A stretch of DNA of 54,065 bases, the filler included, from Dimargaris cristalligena (Eukaryota), in the NCBI GenBank assembly GCA_003614675.1. It is 2 parts of 2 records of this genome, joined end to end, with 100 filler letters (N's around TTAATTAATTAA, not from the genome) between each part and the next. Parts side by side here need not be neighbours in the genome. Positions count along the whole stretch, not along the records: positions 27,084 to 54,065 come from ML002529.1; 1 more part is not named here. One strand, given 5' to 3'. The notes under the pieces were generated by a model, which worked only from the letters and a program-made list of their open reading frames with translations, was not told the origin of the DNA and made no database searches. Each line of letters opens with the position of its first letter. The first letter of the stretch is position 1. Both the position numbers and the translations under genes were made by a program. Shown here in pieces: positions 17,286 through 53,453 of the stretch.

Positions 17286-17319
<34 letters not shown>

Positions 17320-26246: not shown

Positions 26247-26983
26247 GGCCTATCCGCGCGACTCATATATTGGATCTTAATATGCCATGTCACCTTCCCT
26301 TGGCAAGACCCAGTCGATCCCCCGGTCGCTACCATTGGACTCCGCCCTTTATAATTAGCCACTGATCAGTCTACTCCTTTATCCTTTAGTATATAAATCA
26401 CCTACCCAGATTATTACGACCTATTATTCCCTTAGCCCACACTCACTTTAGTTTGTCCAATAAACACTTATACATTTACCCCTTTGATAGTAAGTGTGCA
26501 TCGGTGCTATTGATGATCGCGTGTCTATATTTTTATCACCTGTACTTGTTGAGTAAACGAGTATCGGTTAAGAATACTCCCGGTACTGTATTCAATATGG
26601 GCCTACTCACTCGGAATCTTTACAGACTGAGGGGGGTTGGCCCATACGACAAAGACCTTGGGCTGTCGATTATCCCGGTTTTCGGCAAGACATTTCCTTC
26701 TCCCAGTAGCGGAATTCCATATACTGTTTGGGTGTACTATGATAAATCCATATACATTGTTTAAGTTTCTTTTTACGTATTAACACAGTGGCGGGTACAT
26801 AACCAATGAATTTGTTCAACTGGGTTATATCAGATGAAGTAGAGTTTTATTTAATGTGAATCTCAGGCAGGCGACCTTTTGGTCATAAATGCTATCCACA
26901 GGGAACATGATAATGGGTACTTTGGTCAAAAACCCTCAAAAGCTACAGATATAGAGGGAAAGGACAGGAGGTAGAATAAAGAA

Positions 26984-27083
26984 NNNNNNNNNNNNNNNNN
27001 NNNNNNNNNNNNNNNNNNNNNNNNNNNTTAATTAATTAANNNNNNNNNNNNNNNNNNNNNNNNNNNNNNNNNNNNNNNNNNNN
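26984..27083. other. Artificial contig-joining spacer or assembly gap
   Basis: 44 N + TTAATTAATTAA (27028-27039, stop codons in all six frames) + 44 N, exactly 100 nt. Confidence 0.95.
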
Positions 27084-27599
27084 GGGATTTTATACTTCAA
27101 GTTGTGGTTGCCAAGGACCGACCTTTTGAGTTTCCAAACAAGTATTTTTTATATTGGATTACTTTGGTTAAAAACTTTATAAAGTTGGTTTTATTAATAT
27201 TTTCATTTAAGTGACAAACCAGTTTACCTGGAGAAGCCACCCTGCCCTTTTGATATATTTTTGTTGTTTATTTTAGTGGCCTGACACTACCACACTGTGA
27301 CACTGGAGGCTGGTTATTCCCAAGCCCTATTCATAAAGGATTGTCAATAGCATAAAAGTGGTAATATGAGGTCATCAATTGTCATAGTTTTAAAATCATC
27401 ATTGACTTTGATGACCTATAACTTTGTCAATAATGGACGGAAAAGCAAATGGAAGTATGATTTGGAAAGCTGAAGGAAAAGAAAATCAAAGTAAAAATTC
27501 ATGTAGAAAGAATAGGTTAAAAGGGAAGGGAAAAAAACTGGATATACTAGACAAAAAAGCCACTTCATACCTTGTATATAAATATAACTGTCAAATAGT

Positions 27600-28160
27600 A
27601 ATAATTTGTAGCTGTGGCAATCAAGGGGACACTCCACCTTGCCACAGTGGCAACTTCCCCTAAGGCCACCTCGGTCTCAACCCCCCCAAACCCAGCAAAG
27701 TCCAACATTCCACATTACATGATAAAATATGACAAGCCATCTAGTGGAAAGAAACCAGAGGTTCCCCCTCCTGCCAACTCTCCCAAAGGCATGCCAATGG
27801 AGTCCCTCAAATTGTTAGCAACACACATACATATAGGTAAAGAAATAACAAACTGGTCTATGGCCTAGAGGTAGATTTATGGGGAAGGATGGTGCCAAGA
27901 GTGGTACCCAAGAATGCCAATGGTAGCACAGCAGAGTGGATAATATATCACACTGGAGACTAGTGCAACCCCAAGGCAAGGCAGAACACCCAACTGTAGA
28001 ATGGCTAGGACATCTGGCCAATGAAATTGTCCAGCTCATCCCTCCCCTCACATCTGCCTCCACTGGGCAAGTGGTGAACAGCAGTCACCCAAGCCAATAG
28101 ACAACCAACTGAGTAGTATATAATGAATAGACATGACATAATCTTGACTCCTTAAGTTTT
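27600..28160 (+). mobile_element. Degenerate CpG-depleted coding relic, possibly a GCR1_C-domain (Crypton-like) fragment
   Basis: Only about 3 CpG in 27084-28200, with abundant TG/CA. With frameshifts and CpG back-mutation the relic reads W-YGLEG...YGEGW(R)-KSGTQE(R)QW...WII, reminiscent of GCR1_C. Contains stops and frameshifts. Confidence 0.3.
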
Positions 28161-28757
28161 GATTTAATAACCAATAAATAACTTTAAAAGCTTTCTTGTC
28201 CAACTCGGTGTCTTGTTATTTTGTCAAATCCTTCTTCCCTCCTTTGGAAACTTGGTTGATCCACAGGTCCCACTTGACCTAAACCGTTACACTAGTTTAT
28301 CCCCCTTTTTGTCCAAACATCCTGAGTTTTTTGAAGTACATCGTTCCTCATATTCCACCAACTAGTCTATAGTAAAACCCTTATAGTTTTTATGCAATTT
28401 TTTTATTTTCAAGTGCCAAGGGCAGAGGCTGTGAAACTTTCGTTGCAACAGCTGTACTCTATTATTCTACACTGAGACAATATAAATGCAAGGGGGGGGT
28501 AGGGTGTCACTTTGTCACCATGATTGGCAAAGCTGTTCTTTAGTTTGCATGCAACAACCAAGCAACCTTGTGTAAAATTTTAGAGAAGAAAAAATCAATA
28601 AATAGGTACTCAAACTCAGTCGGCCGTGGCAGACCCATTTTTTTAGTCAGCAAAAAGAAGCCTTTGGTGTTTATCGTTGGTAAAAAACAAAGCAAACCTG
28701 AAGGCCAGCGACCTCTATAATCCCTCAATAGCTAAATTCCGATGCGCTAAATACTTT

Positions 28758-28902
28758 ATATGGGTGACATACGACCCAATTGTAAAAGATTTAAATGATA
28801 TAAGAATGTGAAAATATGCGGGATATTTATTACCAACCAGTTGTGTTTGACTTATCCAACAGGTTCTTCGTTATACAGCCTGGTTGAACTTCTCTCATAA
28901 TA
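28758..28902 (+). repeat. Diverged dispersed repeat, copy 1 (about 145 bp)
   Basis: Aligns with 32666-32811 through shared blocks atatgggtga, gaaaat, gggatatttatt, caaccagt, ttatacagcct and ttgaact. Confidence 0.75.
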
Positions 28903-29759
28903 ACAAGTCGGTTTGGACATAATGTATGGCACTATTTGGTGGGGTTAATGCCAATGACTGAGCTGGACTGGGTATCTGGGAACCACCATGGCAGCTATTG
29001 TTAGGGAGTGCTTAGTGCTGCTTGGTTCATCAAGAAATAACATGTCGCTTAAGTTTCTTTGGAATATACACACCCCATTTCCCCCAAACATCGACCAATA
29101 TTGTAGGACGCCCTCAGGGATTAGTCTGTATTGAAATTTCGCTGTAGAACCAATTAAGATGTTGGGATCAAGTTGAAAATTGTCGTGGCTTATGCATTAT
29201 AGATTCACAGACCTGGAAACACCCCTGCGAAAGGCGGCCCCAGTTTAAGTTGACCCTCCTGCTGCGAGTAGTGGTTGCACATGATGCCCCCCATTGCTGC
29301 CCTAGCCTTGCTACGGCGGACTTATTGTTATATAGTAGTACCAATTATGGAAATAGTGGCTTGTAAAAGAATATACATCCATACCCAACTTCTATTACTT
29401 TCTGATACTTCGAAAACGGTCTAATGTTGGGGTGGGTCTTGTCCATTCGGCAAATAAAGGTCGCACAACTTAGTCATTGTATTACCGCCCTGGGCGAGTC
29501 ACCCAGGGTTATAGAAAGCCGCCAGTTTGCTCATTTCTTGTTGTTTTTTTCATTCAGGACTGAAGTGGTACCCAGCTTTCACAGCCTCGCCTGGATAATA
29601 CACATCCCCTTTATCATAAATGAACATATATATAAAGGTACTTTCCATCCCATCCCATTACTATCTTTAATTTTGGATGAATTTTTCGCTAGTTTGCTTT
29701 AGCTGATTGTTTATTACACTGTCCCTTATATTGCCACCACTAAGCTCACCTCCCTTACC

Positions 29760-31420
29760 ATGAGAAGCCCCATTCTGTTCTTGAGCGCTCCATTGGTCCA
29801 CCTTAGCCTATCTGTATCGGCCAAACCTGTCTTCGATCCCTCGGAAAAACTGCCAAAAGAGCTCCGCACTTGGGTATTAGAAATCCTTCCACTCCCTGAT
29901 CAAGTAGCGGCCGCGAACGTCAACCACGCATGGCGGGCCAAAATTTTGGAGAAACCCAAACGATTAAATATGATAGTAAGTATATAATTATATTATATGG
30001 TTTATCATTATCCAAACCTCAGGCTCATTCAGCTATTGAGCCTCCTAAGCATATGGCTGTAGGCCACTCTTTTTAAGAGCATGTCACTCCCCGCGTATGG
30101 TATACAGGCCAGCAGAAACCAAGTCTCTAGTACTAACTTGTATAACTATTGTAATGACACTGTTTAATTATTCAAACTACGAAAAACAATTTCGATTAGG
30201 CTGAAAGCGAGTTTTTAGCTAACCCTCTCAGTTACTACAGCTCGGATATCAGTGACAGCGAGGCTGATAAAAAATTTATGGACTTTAGTCCGCTCATTGG
30301 CAATCTTGTCCGATCGATTGTCGTCCAATCCATCCACTTAGCCCTTTTCTCCCTTCACTTAGATAAGCTGGGGAATCCTATTACTCGTGGCCTATTGTGG
30401 AACCATCCCGGAGCCGAACTCCCCATCTTTAAAGAAGCGATCCAGACTTTCAGGCCGGAGCTCGAATGGCTCAACAAAAGCGCCCACACTCTGAAGGTTA
30501 ACGAAGGCTCCGCTGAAGTGTTTGATACATTTTTCCCTATTCTGGGTAAGATCCGAACTGGCGATTCCGCCAATTTTGCCCCAATGATAAAGTACGTGTT
30601 TAGTGATACTTTTACTGAAGCCATGTATCGCCAGTTGGAGCACTGGGTGCCGTCAAGCTACGTCAACTTCCTAGCTATTCTTACATTCGTCCTAAATACC
30701 AGGTTTATTGCCCGGTCTGAAGTTGACCATATGCCCGAAATTGTTGCACTTAAAGTGCCGGAGCTTATCAAACGCAGCCTAAAAAATACATTGAACCAAG
30801 CGATCGGTCCTCTAGTGGTGCAAACCAGCGACTTTCAACGGATCATCGATATCGGCCAAGTGATCAAAGTCACGAATTTAGAAATTTCCAAAAATACAAT
30901 GCGTAGGGGTTTGCGTTCAGAAGAAAGGATGAATATGCCCCCAATGGACTCAATACCCTCCGGGCGGATTTCTTTCCCGACATTGATCAATACAGCCATT
31001 TTAATCGCTGAAATTCAGAAAAGACGCTCACTCGTCGAAGCCCTTTCGGACCCCGAGTTTGAGGGTATGCCCCAAGATATTCTAGGCTACTGTGCCGTTA
31101 AAGCCGGCATTATCAAACGCACTCTTTGCCCGAAAAATTGGCTCACCCCTAGTATGGAACGTCTCATCGACCAGCTGAAGGTATCGGAGGGTGATTTTCC
31201 TCAAAGTTGCGTCAGCCTTTTCCTTGAGAACGGCTTATCCGTTTTCCTGGATACTGACGGTGATGCCTCAGTTCGATTCTACCCGTTTAACACTAAATCC
31301 CCTGAACTAAAAATCCCCAATGACCTTTCAACTAACCCCGTTGTATTTGGGGTTGTACCTGCTATTAATGTAGAACCAGGTGATATAGTTGGCGAGGCAC
31401 CGCCTGGATTCCAACTTTAA
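29760..31420 (+). CDS. Secreted protein with an N-terminal F-box-like motif and an orphan C-terminal domain
   Basis: Exons 29760-29975 and 30200-31420; intron GTAAGT...TACTAAC(30131)...TAG, phase 0; 478 aa. This joins two ORFs from the track. Signal peptide MRSPILFLSAPLVHLSLSVSA|KP; residues 31-59 LPKELRTWVLEILPLPDQVAAANVNHAWR fit the F-box pattern. Confidence 0.75.
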
Positions 31421-32665
31421 GGAGTCTATTATTGGGCGTGATATGTTTACCTTTATATATTTTTACGGCACTATTATTTGCAATAAATTACAGCTTAAAG
31501 GTGGTTGTATTCATGTTTAGTCCCCGAAATATAAAATTCTCAACCCCATTTCCGCATCTCGAGAATGAACGGGGCCAACTTACATTCCCCATTACCGGTT
31601 GTCAATTGGAGTTTGGTCCTAATACCACATCAACACTACCCTGAATTGGTTTACCAGAATAGATAAGAATGGAGGAGTACACCTATTTGTCGATTAGTTC
31701 ATTAACGGGATGCTTGAGAATAGCAAATGCAAGCAATCCCAATGGAAGAAATTGGCCAAACAAGCCGGGACTTTGAATTATTCCTGAATATTGATTAAAG
31801 GATTGTATGAGAACTGATTCAAAGATCAGCCGGCAGTTACCTTTCCAGTCACCATTGTCGTAGGGGAGAATCATAGTAAACACAGGAATTCCTATGCATA
31901 GAAAAAGTAAGCTTTGGGGATGTTCATAATAAGGCTACAAACAGCGATTTATAAATAAAATTAATTCCGGATACCAATGTACAGTATAGTCGACTTCAGA
32001 AGGGGATATCAAATAATTGGGCAATGATCTGTGTGATAATTGTACGAAATTGCTAGGATTTAAAAAGACTGGTGGGCGATGGATATTGGCACAGATCGAA
32101 CAAGGAAGGCGTTAGTGGATATTGCTGAGTGGTATAATGTCAATATGGCAAATAACGGAGTTGGGATAATCAGTAGGGAGGCAAAATATAAGAATAGTGA
32201 AACAATACTGGCTAAACAGAGGTAATGTAGTGCTACCCGGAGGTTGAAACTTATCCCCGGACTATGGATAGCCAGTCCTCATTGTCAGAGGGCGGAATAT
32301 GCCGCGATATACAATGACGGTATCATTCCCGTCATTTTCCCACAAAAAATACCGCCTTTACTGTGGCATACATAATGAGACGGGGTCCCCCCTTTTAGAG
32401 GGGACCCCGCCTTTATTGCCCAAAGATAATAGTTCAATATAAGGGTGGTCGGCCTTGCAGACCGCCCCCCTTTTTCTCCTTATCTTTTCTCTTTTTTCGT
32501 TGGGGTTCTCCCACCCTCACCTCTTACCCCACGCCTGCACTCTCCCTTTACTGCGCGCGGGTTTTCTCTTTTAGCCATATCTCTGCGACCAGTTTACTGG
32601 TCCCCCTCTATTATGTATCGAAATTAGTTCAATAAATTGTCGTGCAGGCAATAAAAAACAACAAA

Positions 32666-32811
32666 ATATGGGTGAAGTTCAGCTCAGTTGCATAAGGTTT
32701 TAACTGTTATGCGTATGGGAAAATCGGTGGGATATTTATTTTCAACCAGTAGTATTTACCTCACCAAATGGATTTTTCTTTATACAGCCTAATTGAACTA
32801 CTCCCATATTA
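32666..32811 (+). repeat. Diverged dispersed repeat, copy 2 (about 145 bp)
   Basis: Direct-orientation partner of 28758-28902. Confidence 0.75.
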
Positions 32812-32877
32812 TCTATTTCTTTATACTCGCGGTTTACATTTAAAAGTCCACTGTTCTTTCTTGCATTAAAAGTCCGA

Positions 32878-34115
32878 CCTATTTTTCAGTGGATTCCTTA
32901 TTATTTTATCTCATTCTATTCTTGACCTTTTTCTGTACATCCTTTTCCTGCAGAAAAGCACATGTCCCAAGGGGTATATTATTAATATTACCTATTTCTG
33001 ACTAACTATGCTAGTTTATTTAGTTACTATATGTTCTTTCATTTTTAATCACTTAAAATACCCCCCATAGACTAAAATAATCAACAAATCTAGCTATCCA
33101 GAGATGTCTGTCATCCTTTAGCTATTTTTTCCCCTATCTCTCCAATTTTATTGATACTCCTATAGTATTTCTAACAGTAATTCCATCACTTACTGATCAC
33201 AATAGCCCCTATACAGTGCCTAGTTCCAGTAAAATGGGGCTATATGATTTGGGCCACATAAGTTTATATCTTAAATATGCAAATGATGTACTGGACCTCA
33301 GTTCTTCTTACTTAACCATGTTCCCCAGTAATAGTACATATATATAATATATTTAAATATTCCTTAATAGATATTGTAGGTTATCAGATTGTCTAATCCA
33401 CCTTAATCCAGCTAGCTTAGTATCCAACTATATTAGGCCTTATAATGCTATATTAGCTTTCTTATAGTCATTCCCAGTACTATGGGATCATCCCTTATTA
33501 TATAACCCTCCCCCTAGCTAGACTCTGCTTATTTACACTAATCACCCAATTACTGATCTAAAGACTCTTCTGGTTACCATCAGGTCCCCAAGATCCAAAC
33601 AGCTGTCTGGTTGGCCTATTTACCTATATCTTAGTCTTAGTAGTATCCTTACCTTAGGAACTCCCTCTAGAGTTGTCCCTGTATATATATAACTGGGTCC
33701 CATTAGGACCAGTTAGTTTCCTTAGCTTATTCTTACCCCCTGGTTTACCTCTAATAAACTCTATATATACTTACCTTCTTATACCTAACTAGTAGGTATA
33801 GCCACTGCATATCCCTTACCTATACCTGCATTAAGGCCTTCATTAGTTATCACTATACCCCTACCTAATACTAATGACCTACTTAGCTAAGCCTGAGCCC
33901 CATCTATTATTAGAAGCCTAACCTCAGGACTCTTAATAGACTATGAGTAGTTAACCCAGGTAATATAGGTATTTTATTTTACATATTTTTTTTCCCCTGC
34001 CTATACTAAAGTGTATTTCCCTTATTAAGAACTACTCACTATGATCCAGAAGATTCTTCTGTGATTTCCAATAACCTAACACATCTTCTACTGACTAGAA
34101 ATTAGGGTACCCTAG
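32878..34115 (-). mobile_element. Hypermutated transposon relic, probably the gag-protease region of an LTR retrotransposon
   Basis: No CpG in about 1.24 kb, dense TA/TAG/CTA, no ORFs. The minus strand retains TTG GAT ACT aa GCT AGC (LDT[G]AS-like, about 33411-33427) and CCC ATT TTA CTG GAA CTA (PILL[G]L-like, 33221-33238), about 60 codons apart, which is retropepsin spacing. Confidence 0.5.
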
Positions 34116-35276: not shown

Positions 35277-37388
35277 TTAGCAATTGGATGCACTACGTGG
35301 GCGGGCGTACGGATGGTGCCGTTGGCGAGAGGGTCGCTCACGGGTAGGTGAATGCTGAACCGATTTGACCACGGGTGTGACAGTTTTAGTAGTCGTAGTG
35401 GCAGTTGAGCGTGGCTGAAATGGACCCTGCGGGGGTTTCTTCTTCACCACCCCCACCCCCACCTTCACCGGCGGAGCTGCTACAGTTGATGATGGTGATG
35501 TCGATGATGGTGGTGACGAGTCGTCGGCGGATATGGCCGGGGTAACTAGGGCCCGGCCTTCAATGACCGCGTCAAAGATGGGTGGGGGGGAGAAGGTCGT
35601 TACGGGTGACGATGGAATAACCGCGGCCGAGATCCCAGTGCACCCGTCCGCTACTGGCCGACTGGGATCACTCTGCAGTAAGCAATTATGATGCAAGCGC
35701 TGAAGGGTTTCGATATCAGTCTGGATCCACGGGTGATTGAGGGCATCGTGTACGGTAGCCCGGCGCCGGGGATCGACCACCAACAGAGACTTGACCATGG
35801 AACGGGCCTCCTCGCTGATATCGCCCCAGTACACGGAGGGGAACGTCACAATACCGGCTTGGATCTCGCGGAACAGGAGGGTGTTATTGTCATCGTCACT
35901 CGAAAAGGGCAAGGTGCCGGAAAGGGCCGCATAAAGCAATACACCCAGGCTCCAACAGTCCACCATTTTGTTGTAGCCCTGGCAGGATTCGTCAGTGTCC
36001 TCGGGGCTCTTATTAACGGCAATCACCTCGGGTGCAATGTACTGGAAGGTTCCACACATGGTTTGCATAAACGACTTCTTACCTACGACGCGGGCCATAC
36101 CAAAATCAGTGAGCATGACCTGGGCGTAGGGTGAATTGGTCTTGAGCAGGACGTTCTCCGGTTTGACATCGCGGTGCGAAATGTTACGCTCGTGGAGGTA
36201 TTTGAGGGCGTGTAGGATTTGGAAGCAAATGAACTTGGCTTCGGCTTCGGGTAGCCGTTCCTGGTGCATGATGTACTCAAAGAGGTCACCGCCGGTTAGG
36301 AGGGGCATAAAGATATAGAGATACTTGGGGGTGCGGATGACATCAGTAACTTGGACGATGTTGGGGTGGGTAATGGACTGCATAATGTTGATTTCTTGGA
36401 CAAAGTCGGTTCCGCGCTGCTTGACCGAAATGGAGCCAAAGCGCTGGCGGTCAATGATCTTGGCAGCCAGCCGTTGGCCGGTGGTTTTGCAGATGGCCAG
36501 TTTGACCTGGGCAAAGGTGCCTGTGCCCAGTATCCGCTCGGTGATTTGGTACTTGGCATCCACGACCTCCTGGTCCTGGTGCAGTAGTGCGTCCTGACCC
36601 GGTCGCCGGTAAGTCTGTAAGAAGGTGAAGTAGTTACCCTTGTGGATTTCGAGGGTGTCTCCGTGGCTGAGGAGAACCGTCTTGCCCCGGCCGATCTTCT
36701 TGCGGTTTAGATAAGTGCCGTTGGAACTTAGATCCTCGCATGACACGTCGAAGTCTTCGGAACCGTCCAATGTGGCCTTTGCTGAAATACGACAATGAAG
36801 GTTGGAGCAGAAATCACCTTTGAGAATAACGTCGCATGATCGGTGGCGGCCAATGACCAGGGCTTGGCCCAGTTTGAGAGTGAACTCTAGTAAAGGTTGG
36901 TAAACGGCAGAGGGAGAGGGAGGACAATGATCGGAGCAACATGAGTTAGGCGGATATTTAATGAAAATAGATGGAGCACAGTCCGCCTCCCGCGCTAATT
37001 AATACAGGCGGGGTAGAGTTGGGCCAGTGCAAGCCGGCCTGCTCGGTCGTTTGGGAAGTGATTTGATCAGCCGACGAAAACCAGTTTGCCTATCAGGAAA
37101 CGGGCTATTTAATACAGTCCGTTTGAGTAATTGCGATCAATACAAACACCAGGGAGCACGCGCTTCTGGAGGGGGGCTATTGCTGCGGTATATTACCAAA
37201 TATATATATATATAGTAAGGCTTACCTTTGGACGGCTCACCTCCCCGACTGGCAATGAGTTTACCAATGACGCGTTCGCTGGTCGCAATGAAGGGCGTGG
37301 GTTCGGGCTGTTGTGACTCTTCTAGGATTTGGGTGGGCTGGGTGAACTCCGTGGTGTTGTCGAGAGGAGTCTCGATGGTCCAGGGCAT
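35277..37388 (-). CDS. FHA-domain Ser/Thr checkpoint kinase (Chk2/Cds1/Dun1/Mek1 family)
   Basis: Exons complement(37226-37388, 35277-36886), intron GTAAGC...CTAG, 590 aa. N-terminal TQ/SQ cluster (EFTQPTQILEESQQ); FHA (VIGRHRSCD...SNLHCRI...DLSSNGTYLN); kinase motifs GTGTFAQV, HRDVKPEN, DFG, MQTMCGT, APE, DCWSLG. Confidence 0.9.
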
Positions 37389-37835: not shown

Positions 37836-39134
37836 ATGTGGACCTTACGCCAGCTTCTCCTAAGCGCAGCGTTATTGCGGCTTGTGCTGCTCGTCTATGG
37901 CCTGTGGCAAGATGAGCACTTTGTGGTCAAATACACAGACGTCGATTACCGGGTGTTCACCGATGCCGCCCGGTTCGTATGGCAGGGCCAAAGCCCATAC
38001 GAGCGGTCCACCTACCGCTACACCCCTTTACTGGCCTGGCTTCTCATTCCCAATGTCACCCTCCACCCCGCCTTTGGCAAGTTGATCTTCGTGGCCGCGG
38101 ACCTGGCCGTTGGCTATTTGATGGCCCAAGTCGTGGCCACTCGTCCACTTCCCGCTGCCGAAGCCCCGCCGTCCGCACTGGCCCGTGCCTGGTACCGCCG
38201 GAACCCGCTGGCCTCGATTCCGCCCGCTTTACTACCCATCACCCTCATATGGCTGTGGAACCCGATGGTGGCCAATATTTCGACCCGGGGCAACGCGGAG
38301 TCGTTGATGGGATTTCTGGTCCTTCTCACGCTATACTGTCTCAGCCGGGGCTGCCACCGGAGTGCCGCCCTCTTGTACGGCTTATCGGTTCACTTTAAAA
38401 TTTACCCCATTCTCCTGGCCCTACCCCTCATGGTGGCCCTGCGTTGCTATCCATCGTACCTAGGCCACCGCCTTGACCCCACGGCCACCACCTGGTGGAA
38501 ATACATTAACCGCTACCAGATTGAGTTCGCCCTACTAAGCGCTTCGGTGTTTTTCCTGCTCAATGCCGCCATGTACGCTCTGTACGGATTCCCATTTCTC
38601 CACGAAACGTATCTGTACCATATTGTGCGCAAGGACCACCGCCACAATTTTTCCATCTGGTTCTACCCCATCTACCTGATGTACCAGCAGTCCCCCCAGG
38701 GACTGGCCAGTGCCCTCCTGGCCTTCATCCCCCAGTTCGGCCTAAGCCTATTCCTTGGTGTCTTGTACGCTGACGACCTGTTCTTCAGCGGGTTTATGCA
38801 AATCTTTACGTTCGTGGCCTACAACAAAGTGGTGACGTCCCAGTATTTTATGTGGTACTTCTCCCTGCTACCCATGGTCCTACCGGCCGTTCGGGCCTCG
38901 TTTCTGTGGCGGGGGGCTGTCTGGCTGGGGGCCTGGATTGTCGGCCAACTTCTCTGGCTACAATTCGCTTTTCTGTTGGAATTCCGGGGGGAGAATACTT
39001 ATCTGGCCCTCTGGGGTGCCGGCGTGGTCTTTTTCCTTATCAACAACTGGCTCATTTGGCAGGTTGCTCGGTACTATACGCCCCAACCCACATTTACCCC
39101 TTCCGGGTTGGTTCAGCGTGCTAAAATAGCCTAG
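37836..39134 (+). CDS. GPI14: GPI mannosyltransferase I (PIG-M/Gpi14)
   Basis: Intronless multi-pass membrane protein with KYTDVDYRVFTDAA (DxD), SPYERSTYRYTPLLA, ISTRGNAES, HFKIYPI, RKDHRHNFS and NKVVTSQYFMWY. First in-frame ATG is 37836. Confidence 0.95.
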   Translation: MWTLRQLLLSAALLRLVLLVYGLWQDEHFVVKYTDVDYRVFTDAARFVWQGQSPYERSTYRYTPLLAWLLIPNVTLHPAFGKLIFVAADLAVGYLMAQVVATRPLPAAEAPPSALARAWYRRNPLASIPPALLPITLIWLWNPMVANISTRGNAESLMGFLVLLTLYCLSRGCHRSAALLYGLSVHFKIYPILLALPLMVALRCYPSYLGHRLDPTATTWWKYINRYQIEFALLSASVFFLLNAAMYALYGFPFLHETYLYHIVRKDHRHNFSIWFYPIYLMYQQSPQGLASALLAFIPQFGLSLFLGVLYADDLFFSGFMQIFTFVAYNKVVTSQYFMWYFSLLPMVLPAVRASFLWRGAVWLGAWIVGQLLWLQFAFLLEFRGENTYLALWGAGVVFFLINNWLIWQVARYYTPQPTFTPSGLVQRAKIA

Positions 39135-40011
39135 TGGTCCTTGGGGCCTTTATGATCACCTCCAGTTATACTAAACTAATGGCATTGCCTGCTCTGGAAC
39201 TATTATTTGATAGATAAAGGATTTCCATACTAAGTCACACCATTTTACTTACTTAGACTGTTCAAATTGAGCTTGCTTTTTATCAAATGAACTTCCGCCC
39301 TACACTGGTGTGCTCTACCTACTGTTCTTTGGGCAATCCCCCTTGACTAGAGTGAAATGATATCTCTTCCACATGGGGGAGAAATGGTGTAAACAACACC
39401 ACACTTACACGGGGGGGAGGCAGCGAGCATCCCCTCTCCTTGAAAAGTATTTAGTCCCCCCCCCCCAGTAAACCGCCAACTGGGGCTAATTTTCCCCTAG
39501 GGTGTATTCTGAAATCAGTGCCTTGTATTGGAGACATCGGAGCAACGCAATATAGGCAATATTAAAACAATTATCCCTTTCATTGATTTGCGTCGCCCTT
39601 TTTGAGAACTGAATTCCGGTAATTATTGATGCACTATTAGATCCATGGTTAAGCGCCGGGCTATTTTTTGTATATTATATTCTTCATACAACATGCAGCC
39701 TGGTTCTTGAAGCCAGCCCATTCACACCAAGCATCACTTGGCTCGTTTATTCCAAACCACTATTGCCTGTTTATTGCTTCACTTTCTCAGGCCACTGGAG
39801 GCTGACAACTCCGCTCAACTAATTACCGCTTACCCATTTATTATACCTTCGACTATCCCGTTTCCCAGTACTTCCTTTTTGCACTTTGACCAACCTTTCC
39901 CGCATTCGGTCTAATACAGACCCCGTTGAATAGCGGTTGGTCTCCGCATATATATATATATACCCATTGTTATAAACCTCCTCCAATTCCCTATTCCATC
40001 CCTTACGTTCT

Positions 40012-43000
40012 ATGCTTCAAACTCCGACCAAAACGACGGGGGCAGCTCCCACTGATCCCCTTAGCTCCACAACCCCACTGACTCGACCTGTTTTACCGAC
40101 CAGCACCGGTACCCCATTCCGGTCAACTACACCCGCTCGTCGGCTAACCGTCACTCCCGGTCGAGGAAGCCCTTTCCGCGCTGGCCCACCACCGGGGACC
40201 TTTAACAGCCCCATTGCCACACCGTTTATCCAACGGCTCAATGGACTAGAGTTACAATGGCGACTCCGGGACGCCTACCGTCTATTACGCAAGAAGGATG
40301 AAAGTAAGTATACTAACGCCTTTTCGTACAGGTTCTGGTCAGATATCAACCCTCCCTCCTTTTTTTCTTTCTTAAATCACATACCCGAACGAGTCCGATT
40401 ATTTCCCCCATGGTTCCATACTTATTCAACCGTTTAATAATGCTCCTGGCCCAATTGATAATACTAGATATCGTTCTGGCCGCTGAAATCGGCCAGAATC
40501 TGTTACGTTCCAACGAGGAAATCAAGGCCTCCTACGAAAAGGTTTTGAAGGACCACGGCGCCTTACTACAGGAATTCGATGAGGTGACCCAGCGGGAGGT
40601 GGATGTCCGGAGACTACTCGGTACCTCCAACCCAGATCCGCCGACCCCCAAGCATATCTCACCCACTGGATCCCAACGGGCCGGGCGCGAGCGAATAGGC
40701 CTGCTACAAGACCTGATCAGCGACCTTGAGCGGAGCAACGCCTCTCTCCAGGAGCGACTGGAGGACGCGGAAACTAAACTCAAAGACAAAACCCGGTCCC
40801 ACCATCGGGAACGGACCGACCTGCAGCAACAGCTCAGGACCGCCGCTTCCGAGGTTGACCGGCTAACCAATCTTAATGCGAATCTCGACGATAGTAAACA
40901 GCGGCTCATCCGGGAAAAGACCGAGTTGGCCAAGTCGCTTAAACAACTTAGTCAGCAGGGCGCTGACGTGCAGTCCCTGCAAACCCGAACGGACGAACTA
41001 CAGCAGGGGCTGTCCACCGCCTTAGCCACTAAAGCCGACTTGACCCGACATATTAGCGAACAGCACCGGACATTGGCTGAACTCGAGCAGCGCTGTCTCG
41101 AATACCAAGAACAACTCGCGGACGCCCAACAGGAGCAGAGCCGCTATCTGGACGAACTCCGGGATGCCGAAGAGACCCGCCGCGCCTATGCCGAGGCCCA
41201 GGAAACGATCCATGCCCTCACTACCCAAGTCGAGGAGTTGCAAAACCGGGAATCTACTACAAATGCTAGCAGTGGGGAAACCCCCGGTAACCCAACGGCC
41301 GATACCCAATCCCTATTGGGTGAGATGGAAGATAAGTGCCGTAGTCTACAAACCAAACACGAGCTACTTACCCAGCGCCATACCGGGTTGGTCAAGGCCC
41401 ATTTCCTGGCCGTACACCAAAAGAAACGGATGAAACACCACCTGGACCGACTCACCACCATGGCCGCTGAGCAACCGGCCCACGAGGCCCAGTTAAAGCA
41501 GCTGGAACAATTACTCAACCATACCCGGGAGGAAAATCAGGAACTGCAACGAAAAGTAGAATGGCTCGAGAATCTGCGCGCCGAGGAACGGGCCCAGCGT
41601 CTTACATGGGTCGACCAGGCCGCCCAAACCGGCGAGTCGATGTTGAATGATATGCGATCCCCCTGTGGCTCTCCCCTACGATTTGAAAAATTGGCCGATA
41701 AGGCCGTCCAAGTCAGCATCAGCCAGCCCGACGACAATTGCAATGATGACCTGTCCACTTCAATGATGGTATTCCCAGTCATAGGTTTTGGTAGAGTAGC
41801 CAGTCCTTTGGAGGTGGATGGTTCGGTGCAATCCCTAGCGGCAATCGAACGGGCCAACGCCACAATTGAACATCTTGAGAATCTGGTGGAGCGGTTAATT
41901 AGCGAAAATGACGATCTGCAAACCCGGTTAGACTCGGCCCCGACACCCCCCGGTTCCAAGGGCGCAGAAGTAGCGAACCAAAAAGACGAGGAAATCCGGG
42001 GCCTGCGGACCCGGCTCCAACAACTCCAATCGGAGTGCGACGAAGCCGGGGAAAAACTGCAGCTGGCTTTGGCCAGAAAGTCTCTATCACCACCACCCAT
42101 GGACCCGGGCCTCAGTCCACCGATGATGAACGACCGGTTACCGGTACTTAAGCCCCCACTCTCGCGTTCACCAGTCATCTCACCCCCGTCTTCCGGCTCG
42201 TTCGCCCCGACGATGGCCACGGTCCAAATGGCCAAACTCAAGGCCCAACTAGCGACCACCCGACCGCGGTTAGCCACTCGCCGCGACAAACGCCGGGTCT
42301 TTTCCGGCCACCGCGCCGAAATCCTACCCATGCGTCCCCTGCGGGCCGCCTACCGGGATGTGGAAATCCCCCTCGCTTCCTCCACTGGCAGCCAATCGTC
42401 GTCGCCCGCCAATTCCCCCCGACCGCGCTTGCGCCTGGGTTCCGGTACGCGGGACCGCCCACACACGAAATTCGTTTCGCCACCCCCGCCCCCACGGCCC
42501 ACGGACCCCTCGTATTCGTCCCTCTCCATGACCATGTCCATGGATATGTCCATGGCGTCGCCACCCCCGCCCCCCACCGTATTACCGCCGGCACCCCCCT
42601 CACCGCCGTCAATACCGCGGTCTTCGGTCGGACGGAAACCCTACCGGTCGTTCCAACACCGCCCGCCTGCCCCTTCCCACCGCGTGGGCCTAGGGGTCCA
42701 TTCCACCCCCACCCACTCCAAATCTATCAAAGGGCCGCCTACTCTGCAATTGACCACCGCCCACGCGGGAGGGGATTCCACGGGCCCTGCTGCGGGTCTG
42801 TTGGCCCCACCTAATAATAATACTTCCCCGGGGGACCAAGGGAAATCGCCCGCCACCGTGAATACTACTATTTCACCCCGTACTAATACCGCTGGCAGCG
42901 GGACATCCTCCCCATTAATTGGCCTAGGAACTACCCGTATTCCGCGTCGCACCTCCGGGGGATCATTTACGGAAAATGCCGCCGGCGGTCGAAAGCCCCC

Positions 43001-43178
43001 CATGGCCTATTTATCCCGCCGCGTATCGCATGACCCCACTATCCGACGGTCGACGGCTTCAGCTGATTTCCCGATTACCACCCTAAAGTCCTCCACGCGC
43101 GAACACTCCAAAAATACTAGCCGGCGGAGCTATCGTCAACCCTCTCCTGTCAATGCTAACGAATGTAATCAACAATAA
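40012..43178 (+). CDS. SPDL1: Spindly-like dynein-dynactin activating adaptor (coiled coil, CC1 box, Spindly motif, C-terminal CaaX-type CNQQ)
   Basis: Exons 40012-40303 and 40468-43178 (GTAAGT...TAG, phase 1; 3003 nt, 1000 aa). CC1 box KKDENIVLAAEIGQNLLRSN; long coiled coil; Spindly-motif-like SLLGEMEDK followed by QKKRMKHHLDRL; Pro/Ser-rich tail ending ECNQQ*. Confidence 0.75.
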
Positions 43179-44997: not shown

Positions 44998-46481
44998 ATG
45001 GCTTCGAACCCCCCTTCTCTCATGACCAACCTGCCCCAGGCCATAGCCAGCCGCTATCGTCTTAAACGTGATATCGGCCAGGGCGCCTACGGCCTTGTTT
45101 GGTAAGTCGACCCTCCTCCACCGCCCTTGGGCATTCATCCCGGCGGGCCTACTATTAGCTTGTACAGGAGGATACCGTACACCCTGTAGTATTACTACAA
45201 CTCTACCGTACAATTGCAAGGCAAACTATATGCTTGAACTCTCCCCTCCGCCTGCAACTCACCCATGGTTACCCCACCTTTTACTATCCTCATTGAATGC
45301 TTCCCCCCGGTTCCAGCGAGGCCGAGGATATGATGACCGGCAAACTGGTGGCCATCAAAAAGGTGACCCGTATCTCGGATAAGGAAATTCTGGCCAAGCG
45401 CTGTCTCCGGGAAATCAAACTGCTGCGTCATTTTAGCGGGCACGACAACATCATTTCCCTCATTGACCTGGAAATTTCCCACCCGGACCACTTCAACGAA
45501 GTGTACATGATCCAGGAGCTAATGGAAGCTGACTTGCACCAGATTATTCGTTCGGGCCAGCCACTCACCGACGCCCATTTCCAGTACTTCATTTTCCAAA
45601 TCTGCCGCGGCCTAAAATACATCCACTCCGCCAATGTGCTGCACCGGGACATGAAACCGGGTAATCTGCTCGTTAACGCCGACTGCGAGTTGCGCATCTG
45701 CGATTTCGGCCTGGCCCGCGGCTACGCCGATACAGTCGAGGGTAACGCTGGGTTCATGACCGAATACGTGGCCACGCGGTGGTATCGGGCCCCGGAAATC
45801 ATGCTGTCCTTCCAATCCTACACCAAAGCCATTGACATTTGGTCGGTGGGCTGTATCTTTGCCGAAATGTTGGGCGGTCGGCCGTTATTCAAAGGCCGGG
45901 ATTATGTGGACCAACTCAACCAAATCCTCAGTATCCTCGGTACCCCCGATGACGAAACACTCCGCCGTATCGGAAGCGAGCGGGCCCAAATGTATATCCG
46001 TTCCCTGCCCTTCACCCCTAAACTCCCCTTCCACCAGCTCTACCCCAACGCCACCGCCCCCGCTTTGGACCTCCTCGAAAAATTACTCGCGTTCGATCCG
46101 GCCCGGCGTATCACCATCGAAGAGGTCCTCCAGCACCCGTACTTGGAAGCCTACCACGAACCCGAGGATGAACCCGCCCACGACCATATGTTCGACTTTT
46201 CGTTCGAGAGTGCCCACGATATTGACCAGATTAAACACATGATCGCCCGCGAAATCGCCGGTTTCAAGGCCGCCCAGCGACCTCCCGTGCAACGGCGGCC
46301 CAGTGTGCGCACCCAAGTCACCGATCCCGCTCCGGACAGCGCCGCCGGTCCAGGTCAGGGCTACGAAGAGCAGGCCGGCATCGCTGCCGGGGCCGTTCCC
46401 GCCCAAAATATTCACGCGGCTTCCAACATGGATATCGACTCGTCGGAATTGGAACGTGAATTGGCCGGCATTGGTTCGTAG
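44998..46481 (+). CDS. SLT2: Cell-wall-integrity MAP kinase (Slt2/Mpk1/Pmk1 type)
   Basis: Exons 44998-45101 and 45317-46481 (422 aa). Exon 1 supplies [10 protein letters not shown]. Contains [28 protein letters not shown], the TEY activation loop ([18 protein letters not shown]) and the Slt2-type [13 protein letters not shown]. Confidence 0.9.
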
Positions 46482-47222: not shown

Positions 47223-50161
47223 TTACTGACGGCCACTGCCCCAGAAATTACCTAATAAACCCTTGATACCCCCCAACACACTTTCCTCTTTACCGGCGCG
47301 TTTCTTCACCAAATCAATGGGTAGGTCAATATGGCTACCCGCCAAGTCAAAGAACATGGGCTTATAGGCCAATGGTTGGAAACGGGGCGGGAAATCGACC
47401 AGGTACGGAACATCGGTAGGGGGTTGGGGGGCCTTGTCAGTCGATTTGGACGGAGAAGTAAAGGACGGTACGGTCGGCTGAATAAAGGCCAGTTCGCCGT
47501 TCGACCGTTCGTCGATAAGGGGAATAGGCTGGGAGCGCTGACGCTGACGGTCGTTGTCGTGGTCGTGGTCAGCGGGTTGCGATTCATCCAAACGCAGGGC
47601 CCGACGGAACTGATAGGTCAAATCATCCTTGGCTTCCGTGGGGGCGTCTCCCCCTTCAGCAAGATACCACATGGCATGGGTTTGGACCTTACGGGCGTTA
47701 ATGGCGGACTGCAAGCGTTCAATCACGGCCAGTTGGGCCACGAGGGCGTCGGTGGTATTCGGGCTAATGTCCAGCGAATGCTCGGCCGACCGGAACGTAA
47801 GGCCCTGGAACCCGAGTTGGTAGTCCGCCGGGGTTGTGGTGGCAGTGGCATTGGCATTGGGGCGGCCACCCAGTTGGGATTTACACTGAATCAAGTACGA
47901 TAACGCCCGGTCGTAGAGGGCGGTCGCTTCGGTGAACTGCCCCGCATTATCGTAGGAGCCCGCCACCAGGAGGGTTCGTTGGGCACGGGTATGTAACAGT
48001 ACGGCCCGGGCCGTCCGACCAAGCACGGGAACACCTTCAACCAGAGCGAGGTCTAGGATAGCCTGCAGCGACTCGATGATTTGGTTAAACTGGTTGACCA
48101 AGGGGGCCAGGGCGGTATTACGCCGCTTAACCGAAAGCTCAGCGTTGTCGAGCACCCGCAGGGCCAACGTTTGTTGGATATCAAAAGCGCCTTTCGGTTG
48201 CGGGCTCCCCACTAATTGGGCGTGGATTTGGGTCCAGGCCAGGTAAATGGAACTCAATGCGTGTCCCAAACGGGACCAGTCCAGAACGGCCCGCAGGTCC
48301 GCCAAGCGACGGTCAGCCGATTGGGAGGCCACTTTCAGGCGGGCCGATTCGGCTTCGCTCAGCTCGCGTTCACCGAGTTTCACCGCAGTAGCCCATAATT
48401 TCATCGCCTGCGTCCATGCTGACAAGCTACACCCAGGGAGTCTCAGAGGGGCCAGTAGGTCCACCAGGATGGCACCAAGGGTTGTCTGGGACAGGGGCAG
48501 ATCAGCGGAAGAGAGGGGGCGTGTGGTCGACGACGAAAGGGTCGTCAGCAGGTTGTCGGTGGCCGACATGGCAGCCAACAGGGCTTTGTTCATATTGGCC
48601 CCTCCGGTAAGGGGACACTGGACCCCAAACCAGTTGAACCCCACGGTAGACTCAGTGTCGGTCTCCATCGCTTCGACGGCTTTAGGTTCGCCCTGCAGGA
48701 CATTTCGCAGATTCTGGGCATTGGAGTCGGCGGATGAAATGGTGGTAATGCTCGGGTGGTCCAGAGGAACGAAGCAAAGCTCGTCCAGGCTAGTCCACAG
48801 GGCCTGCCCTTTCGACTGGATGAAATCGCGGGTGAACCGGGCCCAGTCCCCGTCGCTGTTTTCTAAGCGCAGTTTATAGGCACAGTAACGGATCTGGGGG
48901 TCCAGCTCATCGATAAAAGAGTGGCACTGTTCCAGGTACTGGGGCCCAGCCGATCGACCGAGGTGCATGAAAATGTGCCGGGTAACGGTTAAAATATCCA
49001 GGGCGACGGACCAGTTGCCCTGGGCCAGCTGGACTAGGGAGTGAAGGTTGAGGAAGTAGGCGTAGGCTTCGAGACGAAGGGTGGGCATTTGTTCTAAAAG
49101 GGAAGTGCCGTTTAGTAGAGCCTGGGCGTAATAAATGGCCTTACGGAGACGCCGTAGATGGTGGTAGCGCTGGCGAGGCTCTCCGGAGGCATTGCTCGAT
49201 TCTTTCAGCTCTTGGGCATAACTCCAGGCGCGTTCAGCCTCTAGTAGTAGCGTGAGTAGGCATCTGGATAAATCAGAGGTAAAGACCATGACATAACAGG
49301 AGTGAGAGAGAGAGTTACAAACAGGACGACTGATTCAATATACAAATAATTAAAGGCAGATTGGCCAAATCGATGAAGAATTTCGAGACATTCGATTATT
49401 ACTTTTGTAATTATTGATAGTTAAAATGACTAGGATAACCATTGCTGCTATAATATTATGGGGGGAATCACCGAACTACTTACTGGCTGTTATCCGAAAC
49501 ATGATCGGCGGTGATGGCCTGAGGGGCAGTGGCCTTCTTCGAAACCTCGGCCAAATGAAGGGACTTGCGAACCGAGTGCAGGCGTTTGGTACAGAAGCGC
49601 CTGGTGATACAAAGAGATGCGGAGCGGGTAATATATAATAGAGTGGATTATTAGCATCGGGAAATTCGGACTAAGCGACCAAAAAATACACATACATGAT
49701 AGCGATTTGGTTAAAGCCATTGATTAGGTTTGCTAAGGGCGGTTCAGAGCTACTCTAAAGGTATCTTACCGATAACGAATATAGTCTTGCTGCCGCAGAC
49801 CGTTGGTAGTTCGAGCATCGTGAACGTAGCTGATAACTATTGGGGGTGGGGTAAATCATCGGATAGTTGGGTTTGTAAAGTGACGGGTGGAAGCATAAAC
49901 CAGGGACAGTGACTACGTTAGTGGGGGGTTAATGAAGAATGGCGCGGCACCGGCAGGGCACGCGGAAGTAGGAGAAATCCATGCGGATGGGTTAGGTGAA
50001 TGACTGAATGAGCCCTAAGCCAGGACATTCAGGCCGATCGACACTGTGTATTTAGAGATGGGGGTGACTTCGAAACTCAGACCAAAACACTCACTTGGTT
50101 GAAGGGTGGAGGAGGGCTTCACGGCTTCGTTGGAAGGGGGCGTCGTTGAATCCACGTCCAT
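47223..50161 (-). CDS. SRP68: Signal recognition particle subunit SRP68
   Basis: Exons complement(50095-50161, 49770-49836, 49484-49600, 47223-49263), 763 aa. Motifs NGLRQQDYIRYRRFCTKRL, LLLEAERAWSYAQELK, RLRKA, ELDPQIRYCAYKL, FPPRFQPLAYKPMFFDLA and GIKGLLGNFWG. The exon 1 boundary is the least certain. Confidence 0.92.
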
Positions 50162-50734: not shown

Positions 50735-53453
50735 ATGCTGTCTACTGCCTCTCTGGCCTCCCAAGCCCCAGCCGAGCTGGGCCCAGGCCTTAGTGTGCAG
50801 CTAACCCAAATGCTAGAGGCCCTGCCTACCTATAGCGCGACTGGTAATACTAAAATGGCCACGATTCAGCTCGAAAAATTCGCCGCGTTGGTCCAACATA
50901 CGGGCTTGTCGAAAGACCAGCTCCTGACCGTTCTGGGCTTCATTACCCACCCCAATACTGGTAAGCTACGATTAAACCACACCATACCTAGACCCGTTAC
51001 CCAAACGTGGCCCAGCCGGTGGCTAATCAAGCCGAATGGACATAAGAGCCACGCTATTACTGATGACATTTCAGATATTCGACTAATGATTGACTAAAAG
51101 AACCCTTCAATGAATATGGGTTATTATTACTATCGTTATGACTATTATTCATGTAGCTGCTTCGACTGCGCGCTTTCTCATCGACCAACTCTACCCACGG
51201 AACTCCGTGCCCATTGAAGCCGTACTACGCACCCTAGGTTTCATTTCACGGACGCAGTGCTATCCGATCCACGCCCGTCTCCTCCGCTGGGTCGTCCTGG
51301 TCAAAGACTTCGTCGACGACCCCGCTGCACTGGCCCAACTCTACGGCGTGTTTTTCCACTACCTGACTTACGAAACGCTACGTCCCTACGCCGCTCGGCT
51401 GCTCGTAGCACTCACCACCCAGCGCGTAGCCAAGCCCTTCCGGGTCCGCAAACTACTCACCCTGGTCGGCCAAGTTGGCAATGACCCCCATTTGCTGCTC
51501 TTGCTCTCCCTGTATCGAATCTACGCCCCGTCTGATATCATCATACCCACGGATCTACCGACCCCACCGCCGGAAAAGATGCGGTTTAAACTCGTGGATC
51601 GGCGGTGGCAGGAAACGGCGTTTCAGATCCAGCAACGGTGGCATAATGAAGCAGCCAACGAAGATACCGATAGCCACCCCATGCGGGCCCTCCTCCCGAG
51701 GGGAGGCGGTCCACCACCCATGGTGGCCACGTTTAAGGACCACTGGCGAGCGAACCAACGGGCCCTTCTTCCACCCATGTCCCACCAATACCCCGCCGCC
51801 GGTACCAACTCCTCCGAAACGACGCTCCCCTACCACCACCAGTCAACCATGGCCGCCCTCGCCGGGTTAACTACGTTTGCCGAATTCGCCCGCCTCGTTG
51901 ACCGGGTCCAACTGCCGGATCGGGCCGTGGCGGCCCTGGACCACCCGTTCCTCTCCCACCTCCTCGCCTGTACGACAGACCCCCGGCTACTGGCCCGCCT
52001 CAGCTACTGGCTCGAACAGTACCTCCACGAAACCGTGTTTTGGCCCGCACCCCATCCCACCCCACATGTCTATCGGCGCCCCACCCAGAGTGGGCTAGAA
52101 CTCGACGTGATGCTCCAGCGATTGCTCCGGGTAGCCCACATTACGCAGGAATTATTGCCGGTGGTCGAACGGTTTCTGATCCGCTATCTACGCACCTGGG
52201 ATGGCCAGGCCCACCGGAGTATGCTATTCGCCCTTCTCCCATTTATACGCTTAACGGCGTTTGAGTCGCTCTATATTTGGCTGCTCAAGCCTTTGCACCG
52301 TTTATTTAAAATGGCCGACCGCGACTGGCAGTGTCAGCTCCTACAGACTTACACCCAACTACTTAAACGCTGGTTAATTCGGGCCAATTTGGATGCTACC
52401 GCGCCGGCGTCAGAGTCGGAGTCGGAGTCAGGTTCAGAGTCGTCGGGTTCAGAGTCAGGGTCAAGGCCAACCACCAACTTCCGCCGCATGACAATCCCTG
52501 CCAATACCCTGTCCGATGGCTCCGCAGAATCGGATACCACCGCGGACCTGGATACCCACCTAACCCTGGTGGAATTCGTCGCCTACGTCAACAAACTATG
52601 TCTGCTAACTCTCCTGGCCAACCCCCGCCATCCGACCGTGCATACTACCATTCTCGCTTTTTATCGCCTCTTGGCTGCCGCTCCACAACAGTTCCGGGCA
52701 GTCGGCTTGTTGAGCTTACCTTCTTATCCCATCGTGCACCTCCTCTTCTTCTCCGGCCAAGCCGCCACGGTATCCGCCCTACTCGGTATCATTGCGGAGT
52801 ACCGTGTTGTACTCGACTTGGTAGCCCAGTCGGCACCTCCGCCTCGGCATCGAACCTCCCAAAGTAGGGGCAGTCAACCGCCGGCCTCCCCCTACGATGC
52901 CTTCGGACTAGGCGTCGATGAAATCAACCGATTCAACTTCCTCCTGCTGGATACGTGTCATGCGCTATGGACTTCTAGCGCTTTTAAACCCCCAGCCACT
53001 CCCCGTCCCCTCTTCAACGTATCCCCCGGATTTCTCGAATATTTACGGTCCGGGTTACCCATGGGACCCCGTACTCTCAAGTCGAGCTTCACGATTTTCA
53101 ATAATTTGGCCTTCGGGTCATTCCAAAGGGCCTTTATCCAACGGTCCGTCGCACCCCAATCCTCCTCCTCCTCCCCCACCCCAGAAGCAGCTTCCTCTTC
53201 TTCTCCATCCCGCATGGCCCTGTTTCCCTCCACCCCACCACCAATTTCGATCATGGGTACCATAGTACCGACCCACATCAACCAGGAATCATTCGGTCAA
53301 CTAAAACCAAGGTTGTTAGATCCTCAACTCCGCCACCTCTCCGAGTTTCGGTTGGCCTATTTGGCCTACCTCAAACAGCTGGGCTTTGGGGGCCTTAGTC
53401 GCTTTGTACATATCGCCATGTCGCCGCAGACCAAACGGCCCCATTCCAACTAA
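50735..53453 (+). CDS. MIS6: Inner kinetochore protein Mis6/CENP-I/Ctf3
   Basis: Exons 50735-50960 and 51157-53453 (GTAAGC...TAG, phase 1; 840 aa). Mis6-family segments LIDQLYP, LLRWVVLV, LYGVFFHYL..ETLRPYAARLL..LT...AKPFRVRKLL, LL.LYRIYAP, RLSYWL and FL.RYL.TWDG...LF.LL.FI...LLKPL..LF. Confidence 0.85.

Follow-up and report, generated by a model that had tools for sequence, protein, structure and literature searches.

The human Spindly protein, as laid out in PMC9481740, consists of two coiled-coil segments (CC1a and CC1b), a Spindly motif that opens the coiled coil CC2, then a loop, CC3, and finally a disordered tail with a share in binding the Rod-Zw10-Zwilch (RZZ) complex. Spindly has also been described in fungi. 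Holland et al. (2015) show its farnesylation motif in the protein of the chytrid Batrachochytrium (PMC4436830); in van Hooff et al. (2017), Rod, Zwilch, and Spindly make up a defined module, and RZZ-Spindly is placed in fungi (PMC5579357); and Wu et al. (2023) report that all members of RZZ-Spindly are present together in Opisthokonta (fungi, animals), with the Spindly CaaX box originating no later than the opisthokont ancestor (PMC10630089). Here we compare with these proteins the product of a two-exon gene of the fungus Dimargaris cristalligena, which lies on the plus strand of a 54,065-nucleotide stretch of DNA (assembly GCA_003614675.1; the whole stretch is called the window below).

The gene is probably the Spindly ortholog (SPDL1/CCDC99) of D. 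cristalligena, and its product would be a dimeric coiled-coil adaptor that activates cytoplasmic dynein-dynactin. The original prediction, made from the DNA sequence, had proposed a fungal Spindly and had allowed that comparative surveys might already list Spindly in some early-diverging fungi. Surveys do so (PMC4436830, PMC5579357, PMC10630089), and they already hold that non-Dikarya fungi retain an animal-type RZZ-Spindly module for dynein recruitment. The novelty first attached to the gene was overrated in this respect, a fungal Spindly with a farnesylation motif having been in print since 2015 (PMC4436830). The D. cristalligena protein newly joins a family that early-diverging fungi were already known to have, and is rather derived within it.

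Membership in the Spindly family

Three short motifs first drew attention to the gene: a CC1 box, the stretch SLLGEMEDK, and a terminal CNQQ. All three lie exactly where the original prediction had put them (Table 1). The consensus used here for the Spindly motif is taken from PMC9481740 and 10.64898/2026.04.25.720804, and LLGEMEDK, in which an acidic/basic ED(R/K) stretch comes after the L-phi-x-E-phi core, occupies residues 380-387. In an alignment of 10 fungal and animal sequences, the invariant positions include A102, A103, G106, L109, and L110 at the CC1 box, L380, E383, and D386 at the Spindly motif, and Q415 and M419 in CC2. The gap between the CC1-box alanines A102/A103 and L381, the second residue of the Spindly motif, had been put at about 277 residues; the measured distance is 279. 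From that second residue to R-M-K there are 37 residues, both here and in a rodent Spindly of 605 aa. Because this spacing is the same in both proteins, the earlier claim that the motif stands in the same register as in human Spindly holds. The rodent landmarks A23/A24, F258, R295-M296-K297, and C602 correspond here to A102/A103, L381, R418-M419-K420, and C997, and the rodent residue numbers are those of the human Spindly mutants described in PMC9481740. More widely, the pattern [RK]M[RK]xx[IL]xxL is matched by 44 of the 61 proteins of the fungal set introduced below and by 23 of 37 animal proteins.

A generic coiled-coil protein might in principle carry three such motifs by chance, and searches with sequences of this kind do attract coiled-coil noise (myosins, ATG17_like, and others). 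However, when the protein was shuffled 20,000 times, the pattern of the CC1 box came up 79 times, that of the Spindly motif 16 times, and CxQQ at the C terminus 2 times, and the motifs are kept across 61 homologs. The three features are not due to chance, since they are rare in shuffles and recur together in homologs. A generic coiled coil, to which we attach practically no probability, is refuted by this conservation, by the shuffles, and by the profile alignment to animal Spindly described below.

The spliced product is identical, letter for letter, to the NCBI entry H4R33_002846 of D. cristalligena, which is named "hypothetical protein," as the original prediction had expected of automatic annotation. 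The precomputed Pfam match on this exact protein is PF28219.1, a family that the protein Atlas names "Spindly," and of the three Atlas feature clusters closest to the protein, two are of chordate SPDLY, at 0.93. Our own Pfam scans returned only sub-threshold coiled-coil, ATG17_like, and HAP1_N matches for the protein. The copy of Pfam that was scanned has no Spindly model, and true rodent and starfish Spindly match nothing in it; its silence on Spindly is therefore uninformative.

Homologs were collected with an exhaustive phmmer search (query, residues 99-658) against 1.84 billion representatives at a cut-off of E <= 1e-3. This yielded 61 proteins, the query protein included, with 28 at E <= 1e-10 and 5 at E <= 1e-30; most matches span the region from the CC1 box to just beyond the Spindly motif. 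A word-indexed database search with the single protein returned only the protein itself. The Tieghemiomyces sister protein has 41% identity (E 6e-84 by phmmer). All named homologs are from early-diverging fungi, namely chytrids, Blastocladiomycota, Zoopagomycota, and Mucoromycota. They include Tieghemiomyces, Dispira, Dimargaris xerosporica, Calcarisporiella, Basidiobolus, Endogone, Jimgerdemannia, Syncephalis, Coemansia, Olpidium, Allomyces, Paraphysoderma, Gonapodya, and several chytrids. The homolog searches gave no named PF28219-bearing match from either Ascomycota or Basidiomycota. Two fungal orthologs, of Borealophlyctis and Gonapodya, are already called "Protein Spindly" at NCBI. One Batrachochytrium ortholog is listed in UniRef as "Up-regulated during septation protein 1 domain," a lead that was dropped because a Pfam scan did not reproduce it.

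Conservation of the motifs across this set is extensive. The Spindly-motif pattern occurs in 53 of the 61 homologs, and a cysteine stands at position -4 from the C terminus in 54; for comparison, 29 of 37 animal Spindly sequences have this cysteine. The commonest ending is CNQQ (21 proteins), followed by CKQQ (17), CHQQ and CAQQ (3 each), and CRQQ (2), with eight further endings, CPQQ included, seen once each. Among the seven homologs that have no cysteine at -4, one is annotated as partial and four more are shorter than 420 aa; these short proteins may be incomplete. The strict CC1-box pattern is found in only 28 of the 61, and at least 10 more have AAE(I/L/M)G with another continuation. The remaining homologs have no CC1 box in their first 250 residues, some of them starting at or after the Spindly motif.

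Profile comparisons tie this fungal set to animal Spindly. Of 7,999 candidates scored with a profile of 47 fungal proteins, 49 matched at E <= 1e-3. PF28219 is present in every one of the top 24, among them a starfish "protein Spindly-like" at E 4.6e-55 (206 bits). In the other direction, an animal-only Spindly hidden Markov model (HMM), built from 37 animal sequences and scored on 102 other proteins, gave Basidiobolus 132 bits, Calcarisporiella 119, and Borealophlyctis 84.6, and gave the three sister proteins from Dimargaritales 73.7, 70.6, and 64.1 bits. TRAK/HAP1 proteins reached at most 5.5 bits in this test. When four Dimargaritales proteins were aligned with 23 animal Spindly sequences by hhalign, the result was a match with 99.4% probability (E 1.4e-21) over 430 columns, CC2 and CC3 included, pairing residues 81-630 of the D. 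cristalligena protein with residues 2-442 of the 605-aa rodent Spindly.

A quick maximum-likelihood tree of 36 rows, among them nine animal Spindly and four TRAK/HAP1 sequences, agrees with these comparisons. The four Dimargaritales proteins form a clade (support 100), as do the nine animal Spindly proteins (support 98), and the four TRAK/HAP1 rows stand apart, beyond a branch with support 100, from Dimargaritales, animal Spindly, and the rest of the fungal proteins. Neither phmmer of the protein against PDB sequences, which returned coiled-coil noise only, nor a structure search of the Atlas, which returned unrelated helical proteins at template modelling (TM) scores of at most 0.5, was informative, and the latter was not used as evidence. 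Overall, the PF28219 match, the hhalign alignment to animal Spindly, the R-M-K register, and the family-wide CxQQ bear out the proposed fungal Spindly, and membership in the Spindly family is shown at the level of sequence.

Divergence and other CC1-box adaptors

Several observations weigh against calling the protein a Spindly, and most of them concern its divergence. Directly scored, it receives only 4.8 bits from the animal-only HMM (E 480 at Z=1e6), a value like that of TRAK/HAP1, and of its two scoring domains, the CC1-box region obtains 10.0 bits and residues 379-488 obtain 13.6 bits. Pairwise BLASTP against starfish Spindly aligns 36 residues only, at the CC1 box (E 8e-5). The distance from the CC1 box to the Spindly motif is 44 residues longer than in mammals. 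A cysteine stands where the second arginine after the motif is near-invariant, and the PKQ..V block that precedes the CaaX box is degenerate. The CC3 core ELRTxQMLKLSESEKL, conserved from animals to fungi, is here replaced by RLDSAPTPPGSKGAEVA, with a 6-residue gap. Finally, when the fungal profile was searched against PDB sequences, its best match was BICDR1 (65 bits, from the CC1 box to LLSEIE), and no chain named Spindly was found among the best 60 of 347 matches.

The first of these observations can be traced to CC3. The animal HMM credits the CC3 block alone with 39-52 low-bias bits in sister species and with none here, and it is for this reason that direct detection by that HMM fails. 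The two CC3-like helices (residues 550-587 and 596-637) are nonetheless present in the AlphaFold2 (AF2) model and are aligned by hhalign, although their core is replaced and gains no HMM score. Given the low HMM score and the 36-residue BLASTP alignment, the link to animal Spindly is transitive, via the sister species or a profile; in terms of sequence profiles, it is the profile-profile comparison that bridges the gap. The divergence is also visible in the tree, where the end branch of the D. cristalligena protein measures 1.03, compared with a median of 0.48.

A more specific alternative would place the protein in another CC1-box family (BICD, BICDR, or HAP1/TRAK-like), its likeness to Spindly going no further than motifs common to such adaptors. 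We consider this very improbable. Its Pfam HAP1_N (PF04849) match is sub-threshold (16.4 bits, cut-off 33.9), and in sister proteins HAP1_N matches are confined to profile positions of about 70-104, the CC1-box region. The fungal profile does find eleven TRAK/HAP1 proteins, but the best of them reaches 4.5e-10 (57 bits), against 206 bits for starfish Spindly. Likewise, hhalign against 11 TRAK/HAP1 sequences aligned 45 columns only, round the CC1 box (96.6%, E 5.4e-10), and nothing aligns past that box; animal Spindly is co-linear across 430 columns, CC2 and CC3 included. The comparison of Spindly with TRAK/HAP1 profiles that had been proposed as a check thus comes down on the side of Spindly. 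For BICD and BICDR, the comparison consists of the PDB profile search and the failure of BicD (PF09730) to appear among the Pfam families reported at E <= 10. In the PDB search, BICDR1 at 65 bits was followed by myosins, TRAK2 (42 bits), Drosophila BicD (23.8 bits), and NuMA (22 bits). The CC1 box and Spindly motif of BICDR1 are similarly spaced, but the likeness stops at the Spindly motif, and there is no Spindly-specific match in CC2 or CC3. BICDR1 binds Rab6 via its C-terminal coiled coil and is not known to have a CaaX box.

A chytrid CC1-box paralog, P0081, might also be cited in favor of another adaptor family, for it is a HAP1_N protein that the fungal profile matches at 6.7e-32 and that the tree does not separate from the Spindly group. 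However, both the Spindly motif and the CaaX box are missing from it, and the animal-only HMM gives it -2.0 bits. Spindly thus remains the family to which we assign the D. cristalligena protein.

P0081, a 552-aa protein of Spizellomyces sp. "palustris," is a second chytrid CC1-box protein (RDLTLAAEIGQQLV), is long-branched in the tree, and has HAP1_N as its only annotation. It may represent a fungal dynein adaptor in its own right, so far uncharacterised.

Gene structure, domain layout, and surroundings

The coding region runs from an ATG at 40012 to a stop codon at 43176-43178, and the spliced product has 1000 aa. Exon 1 encodes a Pro/Thr-rich N-terminal extension and the beginning of helix CC1a. 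Across the splice junction, the product reads ...LRKKDE-N-IVLAAEIGQNLL..., the same residues as in the database protein, and the exon junction matches DENLILAAEIGQ of Tieghemiomyces. Residues M1, L2, T4, P5, T6, and K7 are invariant in the four Dimargaritales proteins, as is the block PPPGTF..TPFI.RLNG.ELQWRLRDAYR; the four also share the residues that span the splice junction. This conservation supports both the start codon and the splice junction. Searches by tblastn with the proteins of three sister species recovered the same two exons (40012-40305 and from 40467). They gave no rescuing match in another frame at the locus, so a frameshift artefact is unlikely, and a frameshift or hidden exon was ruled out as the cause of the degenerate CC3. 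The stretch 39950-39962, about 50 nt upstream of the start codon, is a short (AT)n run.

The AF2 model has a mean predicted local distance difference test (pLDDT) value of 59.8, exceeding 89 across most of the long helices. In order, it predicts a disordered segment (1-77), a first helix (78-146), a break, the CC1b helix, a loop (361-379), a helix that begins at L380 (380-491), a second disordered segment (492-549), the two CC3-like helices, and a low-confidence tail to the C terminus. These predicted helices match the human layout of CC1a, CC1b, loop, CC2, CC3, and tail. The composition of the 363-residue tail (residues 638-1000) is 16.8% P, 14.6% S, 9.9% R, and 9.4% T.

Table 1. Features of the D. 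cristalligena Spindly gene and its product, in window coordinates
Feature	Position	Strand	Description
Exon 1	40012-40303	+	Residues 1-97 and first base of codon 98
Intron	40304-40467	+	164 nt, phase 1, GTAAGT...TAG; from sequence
Exon 2	40468-43178	+	Residues 98-1000 and stop codon
CC1 box LAAEIGQNLL	40476-40505	+	AAxxG core AAEIG at residues 102-106, within helix 78-146
Helix CC1b	40674-41255	+	Residues 167-360; AF2 pLDDT mostly 89-95; preceded by non-helical break 147-166
Spindly motif LLGEM	41313-41327	+	Residues 380-384, pattern L-phi-x-E-phi; SLLGEMEDK begins at 41310
R418-M419-K420	41427-41435	+	In conserved CC2 segment GLVKAHFLAVHQKKRMKHHLDRLTTM; counterpart of mammalian R295-M296-K297
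CC3-like helices	41823-42086	+	Residues 550-587 and 596-637, split by Pro-rich SAPTPPGS (588-595, 41937-41960)
Disordered tail	42087-43163	+	Residues 638-996; pLDDT <50 for most of the tail
CNQQ and stop	43164-43178	+	C997 at -4, farnesylation-type box

The gene's neighbours are ordinary, with one exception. The exception is an open reading frame (ORF) of 771 aa at 51138-53453 (+), a match to Pfam CENP-I/Mis6 (E 8.3e-52, 177 bits) that stands 8 kb downstream of the Spindly gene. Its proximity to the Spindly gene is probably coincidental, but its presence shows that the fungus keeps at least this inner-kinetochore subunit of the CCAN (constitutive centromere-associated network). The directly upstream neighbour, at 37836-39134 (+), encodes a 432-aa PIG-M glycosylphosphatidylinositol (GPI) mannosyltransferase (Pfam Mannosyl_trans, E 8.8e-72). 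Six other Pfam-matched ORFs, at 35277-36383 (-), 45297-46481 (+), 47223-49289 (-), 4587-5723 (-), 18886-20460 (+), and 812-2011 (+), comprise as a group two protein kinases, SRP68, a proteasomal-type AAA ATPase, a leucine-rich repeat (LRR) protein, and a calcineurin-like phosphoesterase; several of the Pfam-matched ORFs are probably single exons of larger genes. Two ORFs, at 15849-18185 (+) (778 aa) and 30278-31420 (+) (380 aa), match no Pfam family at E <= 1e-4. The G+C content is 0.38-0.43 across 26001-34000 and about 0.50-0.59 elsewhere in the window.

The kinetochore question and comparison with known systems

By analogy with animal Spindly, the D. cristalligena protein would work as follows. 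The CC1 box would bind a helix of the dynein light intermediate chain, and the Spindly motif would contact p25 at the pointed end of dynactin. The CC2 segment with R-M-K would take part in autoinhibition, kinetochore binding, and formation of corona filaments. C997 would be farnesylated, and the lipid, together with the tail, would dock the protein on Rod of RZZ at unattached kinetochores; this docking would recruit dynein to the kinetochore in mitosis. The sources for this mechanism in animals are PMC9481740, 10.1101/279398, PMC4436830, and 10.64898/2026.04.25.720804. A kinetochore role in D. cristalligena is, on this analogy, reasonable to infer. The one ground for supposing that the fungus also retains Rod, Zw10, and Zwilch is that, in published work, Spindly co-occurs with Rod and Zwilch, whose phylogenetic profiles correlate with that of Spindly at r 0.730 and r 0.804, respectively, in PMC5579357. 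Neither Rod nor Zwilch is among the window's 10 longest ORFs outside the Spindly gene, in a comparison that used no Rod or Zwilch query.

The divergence of the protein raises a different possibility, namely, that it is a member of the Spindly family that has become detached from RZZ and kinetochores and serves as a farnesyl-anchored dynein adaptor for some other cargo, such as a membrane or organelle, with the tail as a new cargo-binding or regulatory part. Among the four Dimargaritales proteins, it alone has a degenerate CC3 and pre-CaaX block. Its long end branch and its 363-residue disordered tail are in keeping with such a change, and non-mitotic roles of animal Spindly have been published (PMC9481740, PMC12970171). 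On the other hand, R-M-K in CC2 is kept in register, and in the human protein these residues are required for kinetochore recruitment and corona filaments, according to PMC9481740. The CxQQ box is also retained, and the published profile correlations with Rod and Zwilch (PMC5579357) speak for a continued association with RZZ. We therefore regard detachment from kinetochores as unlikely, if worth keeping in mind.

The same decay of CC3 and of the pre-CaaX block, specific to this lineage, together with the new Pro/Ser-rich tail of 363 residues, underlies a broader and more speculative suggestion, which we would advance only as a long shot: that D. cristalligena Spindly has been uncoupled from RZZ or rewired relative to it, acting either as a farnesylated adaptor for other cargo or within a simplified corona. 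If this were true, the protein would be a natural case of Spindly switching its partner.

For the Spindly ortholog that we favor, the implications are of several kinds. First, the Spindly proteins of early-diverging fungi gain a further member, an unusually derived one, and the gene is present across Dimargaritales. Second, the analysis has practical value, providing a better name for a gene labelled hypothetical and a list of the conserved blocks that have decayed in this lineage. Finally, searches of full-text literature for Spindly in combination with fungal terms turned up no study of how a fungal Spindly functions, and the family represents an opportunity for such work. D. cristalligena is a mycoparasite that is difficult to manipulate; transformation is reported for the chytrid Spizellomyces punctatus, which has an ortholog (P0073).

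It is useful, in closing, to set the protein beside its closest described relatives. With animal Spindly it has in common the AAxxG CC1 box, a CC1 that is broken into CC1a and CC1b, and the Spindly motif that opens CC2, and, further on, R-M-K within CC2, a disordered tail, and a CxQQ end; CC3-like helices lie before the tail, with their conserved core replaced. It differs in its length, 1000 aa as against about 605 in animals, in its Pro/Thr-rich N-terminal extension of about 75 residues, and in the motif itself, which reads LLGEMEDKC here and LFAEVEDRR in animals. With the Spindly proteins of other early-diverging fungi it shares family, motifs, and an end of the ECNQQ/ECKQQ type. Those proteins, however, have 570-760 aa, keep CC3 and PKQ..V, and score 84-132 bits with the animal HMM; the D. 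cristalligena protein surpasses them in length and is the more derived. By its sequence, with a degenerate CC3 and pre-CaaX block and a long inserted disordered tail, it is the most derived of the Dimargaritales clade.

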